From NCBI GenBank assembly GCA_965208575.1, contig CBDBOV010000006.1, forward strand, positions 640,001-704,000: DNA of 64,000 nt, given 5' to 3'. Origin of the DNA: Spirochaetia bacterium (lineage in GTDB: Bacteria; Spirochaetota; Spirochaetia; SZUA-6; Bin103). Shown here one piece after another: positions 26,059 through 29,980 of the stretch. The translations under genes were made by a program, and so were the position numbers. How positions within the stretch are numbered: the first letter of the stretch is position 1; each line of letters opens with the position of its first letter. Below the pieces are notes generated by a model that saw only the letters and a program-made list of their open reading frames with translations, did not search any database and had not been told where the DNA came from.

Positions 26059-26838
26059 TCACGATGTCGTACCGGCTTCAGTCAGGAATCTTTGGATTCT
26101 GTCTCGGTTAGCCGTTAGGCTGGAGAATTGTTTCTCGCAAACGTCGCTGAAGCGCGCCAAGACTCTTCTGCTTATCGATTCTTGGTCTTCGAAGATCGCC
26201 AATGAGCGGAATCGAACGCCCCATTTTTCGAATTGAAGGAGCGTGATGGTGGCGTCTCGTGTCCTTCCGTCATTGGCAAGTGCGTGGACGAACAGGGGCC
26301 GGTCCATGTTGTTTACTCGACAGTCGATAGTGTACATTCCCTGCGGATCGTGTTGGGGGTGGTTCCAGTCGAAACTGCGCCGTTCCTCGGCGACCGTGTA
26401 GCTCAAGAGCGAACGAAAATCATCCATGAAGGTCGACCGAGCTCTTTCTCGAGATAGGTAGGCGACGTCAGCTACCTTCATGAGTGCCTGGATAAAGGAA
26501 TACAGCGCGTCCCCATAGCGCTCATCTGGAATCTCAAGAACAAGTTCTCCATCCCGGTCGTCTACACCGAATGTCGACAAGGTGTTGGAGATGATGCTCT
26601 GGCGCGTACCGCTGGAGAGATCCCTTTCATTGATGTCGTACGTCAGATGCATGTATGTGTGAGCATCATCCGAGAATACCCATTGCGATCGTTCTCTCTT
26701 CAACACGATCGCCAGATGGTCGCCGTCCTCAAAGAGAAACGGCGTGAAGACACGATAACGATCTACACCCTCAGCTGCCAGACGAACTTTCTCTGAAACT
26801 TTCTCGTGAAACTGCCGTTCCAATGCTGTCTTGGTCAT
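26059..26838 (-). CDS. DUF1828-like domain protein
   Basis: VFTPFLFEDGDHL.I.L....W.FSDD..T pattern; C-terminal alpha/beta domain; low GC. Confidence 0.7.
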   Translation of the reverse strand: MTKTALERQFHEKVSEKVRLAAEGVDRYRVFTPFLFEDGDHLAIVLKRERSQWVFSDDAHTYMHLTYDINERDLSSGTRQSIISNTLSTFGVDDRDGELVLEIPDERYGDALYSFIQALMKVADVAYLSRERARSTFMDDFRSLLSYTVAEERRSFDWNHPQHDPQGMYTIDCRVNNMDRPLFVHALANDGRTRDATITLLQFEKWGVRFRSLAIFEDQESISRRVLARFSDVCEKQFSSLTANRDRIQRFLTEAGTTS

Positions 26839-27326
26839 CACTCCCCCGATCCAAAAACAAACTCGCTCTGCGGGTCCGCATCAACCGATAGTCTAGTGTC
26901 CTCAATGAAGCAACGCAACGCACTGCGATAGTCGGCATATCGATCAGTCGGCTCTGCGTAAGCGTCCTCACGAGTTCCCAAATTCTGATAACGTTCGGTA
27001 GCATAATGGATGTGAAAATCGTAGAATGTCTCTTCTTCGAGGTGATTTGTATGTTCGTGGCTCCTGCCGTTGTAACGGCGAAGCCGGAACAGTTGGTTTG
27101 AGAGCGGTATTCGCACAGCCAAAATGATCGAGAAGTCGAATTGGTTCACTGTGCTCTGCCTAAGGATTAGGCGGAACTCATTCCCTTCGTCACCGAACAG
27201 GTCCAAATCCTGTTCACGGTGTCCACGTTTGGCGCGGAGCCGAATCCGGTCGGTCCAATCTGCAGGAGCGGACTTCCGTTCGTGCACTAGGGCATGGATT
27301 TCATGGTCCAGGTAGGTTACCGGCAT
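26838..27326 (-). CDS. Hypothetical protein (DUF6978-like), coupled to the DUF1828 gene
   Basis: LRRYNG.SH.HTN..E..FHIH.ATERY; TGATG overlap with the downstream gene. Confidence 0.6.
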   Translation of the reverse strand: MPVTYLDHEIHALVHERKSAPADWTDRIRLRAKRGHREQDLDLFGDEGNEFRLILRQSTVNQFDFSIILAVRIPLSNQLFRLRRYNGRSHEHTNHLEEETFYDFHIHYATERYQNLGTREDAYAEPTDRYADYRSALRCFIEDTRLSVDADPQSEFVFGSGE

Positions 27327-28063
27327 GACTCTGTTGCTTGCTCACTTCCATCATACTGAATCACCGCGAGTGCATCATCCTTCGGCCGGGACAGCTTGCG
27401 TCCGCCGGCCCGCGGTCAACCGGTTGCCTGACGGCGGACGGCGAGGGGCTTGAGTTCGGTGTAGATTTCGGGGGGCGCGGCGAAGCGCAGCCCGGCGTCG
27501 CGGGCGCGGGCGATGAGGTCGGCGATCCACCCGCACTGCGCGGCGAACTCCCGCTTCGTCGCGGTGCCGTGATCGTGACTGCACAGGTTCCAGAACCAGC
27601 CGTTGCGCGCCGTCTCCTCGACCATGGCGAACAGATAGTCCTGGTAGGAGTCGCCGTGTGAGCGATCGTCGAACCGGTCCCAGTAGAAGCGGTCCTGGTA
27701 GCCCTGGATGCCGAGTTCCAGGATCTCGGGAAATCCCTGGTCGCTGAAGAAGAACGGCTGCTCGGAAAACGGCGTCGGCTGGCAGTCGCGGTAGTCGCGC
27801 GCGTTGGTGCGCACCCAGCGGATGCCGTTGTCGCGCAGGATCTGCAGAATGTCCGGGCGGTCCGCCAGCCCGCGGTAGTAGCCCCAGGGCCCGGTCAGCC
27901 CCCGACAGTCCACCCCGAGCAGCTCCCTGATGACGCGCTGCGCCCGCGCGACCTCGGCGCCGATCTGCTCCAGCGTGCCGCCGGCCTTGAAGAAATTGGG
28001 CGCCGCGCCGTGTACCGGCCGGCCGTCGCCGGGCGTCATGTAGACGCTCCTGAGAAACAACAA

Positions 28064-29452
28064 TCAGGCGGCCTCCGGGACAAGCTCATAACCGAGTGCG
28101 TGTGCCTGCCTTCGGAGCCGGCGTTCAAAGCGGCGCCGGTCCTGGCGCTCCTCGGCGGCGAGGATGCTGTCATCGTAGGCCACGCGATGCGTGATCAGAT
28201 GGTAGATGATCCGAGCCAGTTTATGCGCGACTGCAGTGGTCGCTTCGGGAGTACCCAGACGCGCCCGCATGCGGCGGAAGTGCTGGCCCAGGGCCGATGG
28301 GCTGCGGTACAACGACTGGGTCGCCCAGTGCAGCGCCTGGGCGGCCCGATTGGTGCCCCGACCGGTGTGCGAGCTGATGATCTTGCCGCCGGTGATCTGG
28401 TTGTGGGGGCACAGGTGCAGCCAGGAGGCGAATTGCGGTGCGGTCGGAAAGCGGGACAGTTCCGGGCCGAGTTCGGTGAACAGAACCAGCGCCGTACTTT
28501 CGCCGATGCCGGGAATCAGCGTCAGGTCAGTGCCGAACAGGTGCGTAAGGTGGCCGCGCAGGTCGAACCGCTTGGCCGGTGACTCGGTTGGCGCCTCGGG
28601 CTCCGCATCGATTCCCTCATCCGGTGGGTCGTCGCCCACCGCGCCGGGTGGCTCGCTGCTGGCTTCGAACGCGCGGATGCCGGCTTCGATTTCCTGATCG
28701 CACTCCGTGATGAGTTGTTGGTAGTGGGCATAGGTCGCTCGCGCGTGCCGCAACGCCAACAGGTGCTCGGCGCGCCAGTCGCCCTGCAGCGCCTTGATCA
28801 AGGTCTCGCGGCTGGCTTTGATCCGCCGGTCGGCCAGAGCGGCCAACCGCGCCGGATCCCGCTCACCCGCCAGGATAGCGTCCGTAATGGCCAGACCGGT
28901 CGTCCCCGTCAGGTCAGAGATGGCATGGTGCAGATGCACGTTCATCTGGCTGTACGCCTTCTGCATGTGCAACACGCTGCGCGACGCCATCTTGATCAAG
29001 GTGTCGCGATGGCGCAGCACCGAGCGCAGTGCACACACCTCGTCGGCAGGGCGGAATGAGCCGCGCAGCAATCCCACCGAGTGCAGGTAGCGCAACCACT
29101 CGCAGTCGGCCACGTCGGACTTCCGACCGGGTACCGAGTGCACGTGACGCGCATTCACCAGCACCACGTCGAAGCCGTGTGCCTCCAGGATCTGATACAC
29201 CGGAATCCAGTACACACCGGTGGACTCCATCGCCACCGTGGTGACCTCGCATTCCTTGAGCCAGTCGGCCAAGGCGTGCAGGTCCGCGGTGAACGTAGCA
29301 AAGTTCCGGATCGGGTCCGGGTCGCGCTCCGGGCGCACAGCCGCGTACACCTCGGTAGCGCCTATGTCCAAGCCGGCAGCGTCCGGGTGCATCACCTTTG
29401 GTTGCGCTGTGCGACTGCCCTTGCCCTTGCGTCTGTGTCTGCGTCGTGCCAT
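28064..29452 (-). CDS. IS110 DEDD recombinase/transposase
   Basis: GLDIG, MESTGVYW, GRKSDVADC, IPGIG, ITGGK, AVAHKLAR; GGAGG RBS. Confidence 0.95.
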   Translation of the reverse strand: MARRRHRRKGKGSRTAQPKVMHPDAAGLDIGATEVYAAVRPERDPDPIRNFATFTADLHALADWLKECEVTTVAMESTGVYWIPVYQILEAHGFDVVLVNARHVHSVPGRKSDVADCEWLRYLHSVGLLRGSFRPADEVCALRSVLRHRDTLIKMASRSVLHMQKAYSQMNVHLHHAISDLTGTTGLAITDAILAGERDPARLAALADRRIKASRETLIKALQGDWRAEHLLALRHARATYAHYQQLITECDQEIEAGIRAFEASSEPPGAVGDDPPDEGIDAEPEAPTESPAKRFDLRGHLTHLFGTDLTLIPGIGESTALVLFTELGPELSRFPTAPQFASWLHLCPHNQITGGKIISSHTGRGTNRAAQALHWATQSLYRSPSALGQHFRRMRARLGTPEATTAVAHKLARIIYHLITHRVAYDDSILAAEERQDRRRFERRLRRQAHALGYELVPEAA

Positions 29453-29459
29453 GAAACCT

Positions 29460-29665
29460 CCGCTACGACTGAGTGGTGCGGCCAAGGCGTGTGTAGCAGG
29501 TATTCTCCTGAACGGGATGATCGCCACCCGGCCGCGCCGGCTGACAACCTCACCAATGACTACGCCACCCGCCCCGGGGCCAAGCTCTTGAACGGGTTCG
29601 CAGAACGTAACGCCAGTGACGCGCCGGCCTACTTTCGCGCTCCACCCAGAACTCTGCCCACACTA
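29460..29665 (-). ncRNA. Putative IS110 bridge RNA
   Basis: Two CCCGTTCARGAG motifs match the target and donor junctions; TATAGT -10-like hexamer upstream; boundaries approximate. Confidence 0.65.
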
Positions 29666-29980
29666 TAGCTCACCCTTGTTTCTTTCATGACTGCGCCGGC
29701 CCAGGGGCCGGTGGGATAGCTCTTGAGCAGCACGTGGCTGTAGGTGTGCTGCGCGACCGTGACCAGGGGACTGTGCATGCAGGTACGGATCGCATCCGTG
29801 CACCGCTCGACCGTCTCGCCGGTGAGGTAGATGGTCCATGGTACGCCGAACCGTTCGTGCAGTTCGGCGGCGCCCTCCAGGAACCCCACCGAATCCTGCG
29901 ACGCCATCTCCACGTCGTACCCGAACAGCATCGTTCCGCTCATGGCCGGGCTGCCGTCGCTGCCGTCGTGCCGGCGCCGG

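Follow-up and report, generated by a model that had tools for sequence, protein, structure and literature searches.

Bridge recombinases are under development as tools for programmable genome writing, work that draws on natural diversity. The element described here is an RNA-guided recombinase of an already known kind, with some unusual details. In the parts of the published IS621 accounts that bear on this comparison (Durrant et al., 2024, PMC11208160; Hiraizumi et al., 2024, PMC11208158), IS621 combines a two-domain recombinase (DEDD RuvC-like and Tnp) with an RNA encoded in a long left non-coding end and bearing target- and donor-binding internal loops, a 2-nt core common to target and donor, a loop strand made up of a guide, AG and two handshake bases, a lack of terminal inverted repeats and a target duplication limited to the core, all of which have counterparts in the present sequence. 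One IS621 loop strand is described as running RTG-AG-HSG, with the long left guides on the 5′ side of the bridge RNA (bRNA) at positions ≤53 and the right guide and handshake at 74–82 (PMC11208158). The present element differs in its longer protein (462 aa, vs. 328 residues in the IS621 PDB chain), to which similarity is distant, and in a guide-AG-handshake strand that would recognize the left flank and right end of the element (in gene sense), with a core reading AG. Further differences are the placing of the long guides on the 3′ loop strands, a common helix that closes both arms into a three-way junction, a threonine at the position of IS621 S241 and an effective natural address of about 7 nt.

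Other members of the family are further removed. For ISPpu10 of Pseudomonas putida, the available text of a preprint (10.64898/2026.03.19.712850) is understood to place the bridge RNA in the right end, whereas here it lies in the left; it writes the core as CT, has targeting depend on a hairpin in a REP-like target where the present element uses ordinary sequence, and mentions reversed strand polarity. The IS1111 group shares the IS110-family recombinase and the RNA-guided mechanism, but carries its RNA in a long right end and has sub-terminal inverted repeats of 7–17 bp; membership of this group was considered and rejected, as the right end here is 17 nt long and the RNA lies on the left. A catalogue of bridge RNAs, with 86 covariance models and 32,190 loci, states in its accessible text that many deviate from IS621 and still covary with target and donor (10.64898/2026.10.21.760802), and the present clade may well be among its structures. 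Neither a left-end bridge RNA with a flipped site nor a threonine nucleophile was found in the running text of the literature on IS110 and bridge RNAs, the ISPpu10 preprint alone touching on strand polarity, though figures or supplements of PMC11208160 and 10.64898/2026.10.21.760802 may show the clade.

The window, which is the whole 64-kb stretch of DNA analyzed, very probably contains an active IS110-family element, with a bridge RNA specified in its 5′ non-coding end and a gene for a DEDD/Tnp recombinase. The parts of the element and its junctions are:

28047-29719, minus strand: IS110-family insertion sequence, 1673 bp, with one copy of the AG core counted at the right end; ends fixed by 15 copies.
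28047-28054, minus strand: cTCAGGAG, the element's right end (left donor with core), identical in 15/15 copies.
28064-29452, minus strand: transposase (bridge recombinase) gene, 462 aa, with ATG at 29452 and GGAGG at 29461-29457.
29696-29719, minus strand: left end of the element (right donor, CTATCCCA), then a perfect hairpin, CCGGCCC-CTG-GGCCGG.
29720-29727, minus strand: host-side left target plus core (cTCAAGAG; core AG at 29721-29720), equal to the left target guide, with TCAAGAG in 14/14 independent insertions.

The assignment to IS110, made in the earlier note from the letters of the window, is borne out by matches of the protein to PF01548 (DEDD RuvC-like, N-terminal; E 6.4e-20, residues 26–166) and PF02371 (Tnp, C-terminal; E 1.5e-11), and by remote similarity to the transposase of IS621 (E 1.3e-7, along the Tnp domain). 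Residues D29, E76, D113, and D116 are invariant in 10 orthologues, and E76 lines up with the residue of the IS621 chain equivalent to E60.

Fifteen full copies are present in the genome. TCAAGAG ends the left flank in all 14 independent insertions genome-wide, and the 15th copy stands in tandem behind the TCAGGAG end of another (G000 C4:1265899-1269244), the pair carrying a junction of TCAGGAG with CTATCCC. There are 346 TCAAGAG sites in the genome, of which these 14 are occupied. An empty site, ...CTCAAGAG running directly into CGTCTACATG, was found in three congeners and is precise, the difference between filled and empty sites being exactly the element, with GAG in common. The element begins CTATCC and ends CAGGAG, with non-coding ends of 267 nt (left) and 17 nt (right); terminal inverted repeats are absent, target duplication does not go beyond the short core, and the left-end hairpin is present at the equivalent place in orthologues. 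[quoted passage not shown] The base that follows TCAGGAG at the right end is C in 10 copies, T in three, A in one and G in one, so that the C is part of the flank or of the left end, leaving GAG as the constant overlap, one base shorter than the GAGC proposed earlier. A bias toward C at right flank +1 among the genome's copies was considered and set aside as weak (10/15, vs. 152/332 unoccupied sites).

The two parallel minus-strand motifs from which the earlier note started are both present, as CCCGTTCAAGAG(C) at 29596-29584 and CCCGTTCAGGAG at 29516-29505. The pattern CCCGTTCARGAG occurs twice in the window against an expectation of 0.04, a count reached in 0/100 shuffles. TCAAGAGC, which stands at the junction (29726-29719), is not rare alone (three in the window vs. 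1.3 expected, with three reached in 12/100 shuffles), and the weight therefore rests on other evidence. The proposed correspondence of the first motif with the host junction and of the second with the element's own end (TCAGGAG, 28053-28047) is upheld by TCAAGAG in 14/14 flanks and TCAGGAG in 15/15 ends, and the single A/G difference between the motifs tracks that between flank and end in the copies. The features of the predicted RNA are:

29473-29645, minus strand: 173-nt bridge RNA core, running from one strand of the closing helix P1 (5′) to the other (3′); a three-way junction, supported by covariation.
29505-29512, minus strand: UUCAGGAG, the left donor guide with its core, which follows CCCG (29516-29513) on the 3′ strand of the donor-binding loop.
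29583-29584, minus strand: two putative "handshake" bases, CU, after the core, equal to the left end's first two bases (non-cognate, donor side).
29585-29592, minus strand: UUCAAGAG, the left target guide with its core, which follows the conserved CCCG (29596-29593) on the 3′ strand of the target-binding loop.
29616-29623, minus strand: 5′ strand of the target-binding loop, CGCGUCAC, in which CGCGU is the predicted right target guide and the next C would pair with the G of the core.
29662-29667, minus strand: TATAGT, a −10-like hexamer and possible bridge RNA promoter, at a position conserved in orthologues.

Folding of the leader, which the earlier note had suggested as a check, gave a two-loop structure supported by 40 orthologues, while the fold of the single sequence was not unusual (z −0.79), a measure that is uninformative in this G+C-rich sequence. 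With RNAalifold, the 40 orthologues form two arms, each with an internal loop, in which 17/25 pairs are compensatory; 94.9% of cells are paired, vs. 31–45% when the partner strand is slid, and the observed values were reached in 0/500 shuffles. Both loop 3′ strands read CCCG, six nucleotides and AG. The constrained fold of this element has an energy of −68.8 kcal/mol, vs. −71.8 kcal/mol for the MFE structure. An Rfam search of the region found no family for the leader, the only match being a sub-threshold chance one to p27_CRE (18.6 bits, vs. a gathering score of 42).

UUCAAGAG is identical to the left flank and UUCAGGAG to the right end of the element, except for C in the DNA vs. U in the guide at the first position; among orthologues, a first guide base U facing a flank C is also common (12/58). 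Both guides end in AG in 111/124 aligned leaders, which give 84 distinct guide pairs with AG as the invariant core (GAG in this element). This core was at first taken to be other than the CT of IS621, but is its reverse complement. The covariation of guides and junctions among homologues that had been called for was found. The target-loop 10-mer matches the upstream window of its own locus in at least 9/10 positions in 47/73 lineages (0.65% for non-cognate pairs), and for the donor-loop 8-mer a match in at least 7/8 positions lies downstream of the cognate gene in 24/27 (4% non-cognate), with crossed controls of each guide against the wrong window at 14% vs. 6%, and 18.5% vs. 9%. Cognate guides across the 84 pairs thus match their own flanks far better than non-cognate ones, and the bridge-RNA reading holds, with the two motifs in the two internal loops of a covarying RNA as its target and donor guides. 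A second, diverged copy in the genome has the guide UUGUCAAG and the flank cTGTCAAG, and a sister element in congener G003 has TGTCAAG in 5/5 left flanks, matching its own guide. This natural diversity of guides suggests that the element may be reprogrammable. Near-identity of target and donor guides was considered as a rule of the family and rejected; a distance of 1 occurs in 6/84 pairs vs. 3.6% at random, which is not clearly above chance, and a distance of 0 never occurs.

In the covariation-supported structure, two arms, each with an internal loop, meet in a three-way junction. The guide bases of the first loop (UUCAAG-AG) spell the genomic left flank plus core, and those of the second (UUCAGG-AG) the element's own right end plus core. 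From the established bridge-RNA mechanism we infer that the leader is transcribed and that each guide pairs with the complementary DNA strand. Such pairing would bring a circular or copied-out element to its target, with strand exchange at the AG core. The two post-core bases of the target loop match the left end and may thereby form a handshake with the non-cognate partner, and the right flank tends to be matched by one post-core base of the donor loop. In the family, the target loop's 5′ strand carries a right target guide of 5 nt. The first two bases of the left end, CT, are those that follow the core in the target loop, and in orthologues with junctions found by 8-mer alone this identity holds at +1 in 56/58 and at +2 in 44/58 (shuffle means 38.8 and 17.4), values inflated by relatedness because the comparison sets two parts of the same element side by side. 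In the donor loop, the base directly after the core is associated with right flank +1 (z 6.3).

The earlier note could not place the right-hand guides; the right target guide is now placed by covariation, whereas for the right donor guide that statement stands. The right target guide is CGCGU+C at 29623-29618, with antidiagonal covariation with right flank +1 to +5 across the family (z 5.9, 7.1, 3.2, 4.9, and 3.7), and right-half scores of 4–5 of 5 in 32/78 cognate pairs, vs. 8% of non-cognate ones. These values favor an alternative that we consider doubtful, in which this guide does operate and the real preferred address spans some 12 nt (TCAAGAG + R-Y-G-Y-G), the 14 sites being off-target insertions by the left guide only that accumulate because full-match sites are nearly absent. 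Only one unoccupied TCAAGAG site in the genome has a 5/5 right-half match, and off-target insertion of IS621 through an incomplete bridge RNA match, in one of the two loops, is described in the available part of a recent report (10.64898/2026.08.31.748434). Yet none of the element's 14 independent sites scores above 3 against CGCGU (0–3 of 5, where non-cognate pairings score mostly 1–3), the lone perfect site is empty, and the right flanks of the sister elements in G003 and G014 are unlike one another too. Pairing of this guide in the family is only 55–67%, and with the largest clade excluded its covariation is clear at +1 and +2 only. As the element's own insertions do not obey the right target guide, the effective address is about 7 nt (TCAAGAG). 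CATC lies at offsets 0, 1, and 2 in 3/5 G003 flanks, an observation that touches on the idea of flexible right-guide spacing. For the right donor guide, complementarity of the donor-loop 5′ strand to the left end's first base, in the register of the target loop, was 0.16, below background, and a scan of all 182 RNA columns gave no run of variable, complementary columns; a partial match by eye of GGUGGCGUAGU to the left end was rejected, as it is not kept in orthologues.

T354-G355 of the transposase aligns with S241-G242 of IS621, which puts a threonine and not a serine at the nucleophile position of the alignment. This residue, together with the fact that neither circle nor RNA was observed, could be taken to mean that the element is now inactive and that the copies are relics of a past burst. 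Such a history is improbable, because the 15 copies are internally identical throughout their 1673 bp, with every reading frame intact, and because the same element was found above 81% identity in 0/30 relatives; both findings support the recent multiplication behind the earlier proposal of recent activity. Within the clade, moreover, the position is serine in 80 and threonine in 23 of the 103 loci showing the motif, and threonine is found in all 16 sister-element stretches (L160–L175, four congeners; multi-copy in G003 and G014), so that threonine goes with proliferation.

A consensus promoter and terminator scan gave 0 sites and no sigma-70 pair, which leaves TATAGT as no more than a candidate promoter, and no junction promoter across the right and left ends was found by eye. 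In metatranscriptome X15, three short contigs, of which two have 95–99% identity (a relative), cover only parts of the gene, and the leader has none; 0 reads from the raw RNA runs X23 and X24 fell on the stretch, the host's presence in either run not being shown. That the CCCG-N6-AG repeats act as DNA, as sub-terminal transposase sites or target decoys and not as RNA guides, would fit the identity of guide-encoding DNA with the target, the lack of a demonstrated bridge RNA transcript and the loci at which the best "flank" match is the guide itself, but is scarcely credible given that the motifs lie in internal loops framed by compensatory pairs that matter only for RNA, that variable guide bases follow their own flank in most lineages, and that the family mechanism was shown by experiment for IS621 in the accounts consulted (PMC11208160, PMC11208158).

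Returning to a bridge-RNA-guided recombinase as the preferred reading, the AG core is the reverse complement of CT and the guides lie on the opposite loop strands, so that the site is flipped relative to the cargo with no new core chemistry. Put differently, the pairing geometry becomes that of IS621 after a 180° turn of the DNA, and the site is thus flipped with respect to the bridge RNA and transposase genes. It is possible, and we propose it only tentatively, that the clade is a natural "mirror" of IS621, with inverted sites, recognition almost wholly by the two guide-AG-handshake strands, a weak right target, an absent right donor and a threonine nucleophile in its proliferating members. 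As part of the same tentative proposal, and by analogy with IS621 geometry, these strands might read the first-cleaved DNA strand. If so, a bridge recombinase can use a 7-nt, one-sided address and a phosphothreonine intermediate. The 14 independent insertions, three congener empty sites and 84 guide variants form an unusually clean natural data set that defines the rules of a clade far from IS621, and if these points hold, they bear on how much of the four-guide scheme is needed, on the freedom of site orientation relative to cargo and on whether serine is obligatory in the active site.

The targets of the element are ordinary coding or intergenic sequence, in which no common structure was seen. 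In the window it splits a polysaccharide-deacetylase-like gene:

27416-28046, minus strand: host gene, downstream part, 97% identity to congener G006; the right target starts at 28046.
29720-29943, minus strand: host gene, upstream part, PF01522 (E 1.1e-4, 22.6 bits, just below the 23.1-bit cut-off).

The short address explains why the element lands in ordinary genes such as this deacetylase-like one, and not in safe repeats. Both parts of the gene are contiguous in congeners, and in G006 they form an uninterrupted frame of 613 aa.

The insertion sequence at window positions 28047–29719 is a bridge-RNA element of the IS110 family, a kind already known, and the central idea of an earlier note made from the sequence alone, that its non-coding end spells out both target and donor site, is right in substance and wrong on the core. 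Three features merit testing at the bench: a recombination site read as flipped, an address of 7 nt on one side only, and threonine at the nucleophile position. The relevant features of the window are:

28047–29719, minus strand: IS110 element, 1673 bp, with a non-coding left end of 267 nt and a right end of 17 nt
28064–29452, minus strand: transposase gene, 462 aa, ATG at 29452, GGAGG 5 bases upstream
29645–29473, minus strand: RNA core, from the covariation fold
29623–29618, minus strand: predicted right target guide, CGCGU+C, which predicts a right flank R-Y-G-Y-G
28391–28393, minus strand: codon of T354, in the motif ...CPHNQITGG

Both IS110 domains were found in the transposase (PF01548, 6.4e-20; PF02371, 1.5e-11), and its sole solved relative by sequence, the IS621 transposase, is distant (E 1.3e-7, mainly the Tnp domain). 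A weak match to polysaccharide deacetylase (PF01522, 22.6 bits where the cut-off is 23.1) was found for the upstream piece of the gene that the element splits. This host gene is intact in three congeneric genomes, where the empty site reads ...CTGCTCAAGAG joined directly to CGTCTACATG..., and the insertion was therefore precise, without duplication beyond the common GAG. Directly downstream of the interrupted gene are two small adjoining genes (26059–27326, minus strand); one encodes a 260-aa DUF1828 protein (E 1.6e-26), and the product of the other is 162 aa long and matches nothing in Pfam.

The motif observation draws its strongest support from the genome outside the window. Two parallel motifs were indeed present at 29584–29596 and 29505–29516 (minus strand), where the earlier note had seen them. 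The 64 kb contain the pattern CCCGTTCARGAG two times, for an expectation of 0.04. The genome holds 15 full copies of the element, without any difference inside and with all frames intact. Whether other insertions have TCAAGAG-like targets was a check set beforehand, and TCAAGAG stands directly before the element in 14 of 14 independent copies, with the fifteenth in tandem behind the TCAGGAG end of another copy. TCAAGAG is found at 346 sites, about the number expected from composition, of which 14 are occupied. The base 3' of the right end varies among the 15 copies (C 10, T 3, A 1, G 1), which shortens the constant overlap to GAG from the GAGC that had been proposed.

The tandem pair (G000, the own genome, C4:1265899–1269244) consists of two copies head to tail, together in one TCAAGAG site. 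Its junction, TCAGGAG followed by CTATCCC, is the sequence expected for a circle junction, and the pair would confound PCR for circles. The arrangement fits insertion into the end of a resident copy; that end (TCAGGAG) is one base off the target and matches the donor guide. Recombination with only part of the bridge RNA matched is reported for IS621 (10.64898/2026.08.31.748434), and copy-out mechanisms that leave the old copy in place are reported in two preprints; both would fit the copy number. The identical, intact copies, the lack of any copy above 81% identity among the 30 relatives searched, and a DNA run from another sample, in which contigs stop at the element's ends and go on into other flanks, point to a recent burst, in line with the earlier view of a recently active element. 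Related elements of 74–81% identity are multi-copy in two congeneric genomes, G003 and G014. A fragment of ~305 bp of the element's 3' end (95% identical) with a 46-bp piece (G000 C2:51409–51817) adjoins a full copy (C2:52108–53780), and the right flank CGTGGCTGTC common to both suggests local duplication or rearrangement.

Homologues numbered 132 loci at 42–69% protein identity, collected in two scans, the first of genome and the second of metagenome contigs, and the named genome records among them are mostly Acidobacteriota. A first alignment supplied the profile to which the leaders were aligned, and both motifs were present in 111 of 124 aligned leaders, giving 84 distinct guide pairs, all ending in AG, of which the first guide is highly variable and the second less so (consensus UUUAGGAG). 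The two CCCG-N6-AG motifs form the 3' strands of two internal loops. Durrant et al. (PMC11208160) describe left guides as carrying top-strand sequence and pairing with the bottom strand; on these terms the first motif is the left target guide, with the second as its donor-side counterpart. In 47 of 73 lineages the target-loop 10-mer agreed at ≥9 of 10 positions with the upstream window of its own locus, compared with 0.65% of non-cognate pairings, and in 24 of 27 the donor-loop 8-mer agreed at ≥7 of 8 positions with the sequence immediately 3' of its own gene, compared with 4%; crossed controls, guide against wrong window, gave 14% vs 6% and 18.5% vs 9%. Such an excess of cognate matches, in loops of a covarying RNA, upholds the reading of the motifs as target- and donor-side guides. 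Guide positions 2–8 are nearly always identical to the flank, and position 1 is weak (identical in 26 of 58, U opposite flank C in 12 of 58). Two independent guide-flank cases come from a second family member in the own genome (G000 C4:~146500–147230; ~75% identical, with a transposase that breaks off after about residue 146), with its own guides UUGUCAAG and AUAAGGAG and the left flank cTGTCAAG followed by CT, and from the five-copy sister element of G003, with TGTCAAG in 5/5 left flanks.

In the largest clade (L024–L065, from Acidobacteriota MAGs), a conserved site, GATTAGTACCGAxAAG followed by TCGGCTT, recurs in many different genomes. Its arms, CCGA/TCGG, are partly palindromic, and it looks like a repeated host element serving as a safe site, unlike the situation of the window's element. 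Upstream of the closest relative (L022:~1170–1240, 69% identity) is a fragment resembling another copy's target loop, then the element, flanked on its right by an (AAG)n repeat. DNA that encodes a guide equals a target in sequence, and the element may have inserted into such DNA here.

RNAalifold on 40 diverse leaders gave a helix, P2, closing an internal loop with an inner helix (UGG with CCG) and hairpin. Beside it, a long helix, Px, encloses the other internal loop, again with inner helix and hairpin. Compensatory changes occur in 17 of 25 pairs, and on the same alignment 94.9% of cells are paired, falling to 31–45% with the partner slid by 1–3 columns; none of 500 shuffles reached the observed pairing values. 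The same helices emerge from column counts on 105 distinct leaders, together with a closing helix, P1, which with the two arms makes the whole RNA a three-way junction. The fold constrained to the conserved helices lies just 3 kcal/mol above the unconstrained minimum.

In IS621, the 5' part of the loop carries the left target guide (G53 with position 11 of the bottom strand) and the 3' part the right one (74–80, with top-strand 14–8, including the CT core), directly followed by the handshake bases, 81–82 (PMC11208158). An RNA strand of guide, AG and handshake is present in both systems; in IS621 this strand pairs with the gene-sense strand right of the core, whereas in the element it equals the gene-sense sequence left of the core, and so pairs with the antisense strand. 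With the DNA turned 180 degrees the two are superimposable and AG becomes CT; we therefore read the recombination site as turned round with respect to the genes for the RNA and the recombinase, and the core thought to differ from that of IS621 as no new one. This geometry follows directly from the predicted pairings, and the chemistry, we infer, would follow it. The element has long guides on the strand whose guides are short in IS621. Left guides with reversed strand polarity are reported for ISPpu10, another IS110 element (10.64898/2026.03.19.712850), and many deviant structures in section 2.4 of a bridge RNA catalogue (10.64898/2026.10.21.760802), so variants of this sort are not unheard of.

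AG in the target loop is followed by two bases identical to those that begin the element's left end, and not to the right flank. At junctions located from the 8-mer alone, +1 was identical in 56/58 and +2, where all four bases are represented, in 44/58 (shuffle means 38.8 and 17.4), figures that relatedness inflates, since the element supplies both partners. In the donor loop, the base that follows AG tends to be the same as right-flank position +1 (z 6.3). The logic is the same in IS621, where handshake guides are reported to pair with non-cognate DNA after strand exchange (PMC11208158).

Of the right-hand guides, which the earlier note could not place, the target one was located by covariation, and the donor one was looked for in the aligned leaders and not found. 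Along the 5' strand of the target loop, complementarity to right-flank positions +1 to +5 forms an antidiagonal (z 5.9, 7.1, 3.2, 4.9 and 3.7), with a constant C opposite the core G; without the largest clade the signal is clear at +1 and +2 only (z 2.8 and 5.2), and pairing across the family is just 55–67% per position. Against the element's 14 independent sites this guide scores 0–3 of 5, a level no higher than that of non-cognate pairings, and the one TCAAGAG site scoring 5/5 is unoccupied. The right flanks of sister elements are also unlike one another. The effective address of the element is thus ~7 nt. In the G003 sister element (L160–L164), CATC(G/A), the predicted partner of its right target guide, is present in 3/5 right flanks, offset from the core by 0, 1 and 2, which may reflect chance or flexible spacing.

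T354, followed by the invariant G355, aligns with the IS621 nucleophile S241 (S241–G242 loop) in one pairwise phmmer run and through a conserved P-x4-[ST]-G motif, a correspondence at the sequence level only. Of the 103 loci with the motif, 80 have Ser at this position and 23 have Thr, as do 16/16 sister-element stretches from four congeners. A literature search found no paper on Thr at the IS110 nucleophile position.

A perfect hairpin, CCGGCCC-CTG-GGCCGG (29696–29711, minus strand), begins 8 nt inside the left end, and in orthologues this place is taken by a hairpin of other sequence. Insulation against read-through or a part in donor recognition are possible roles.
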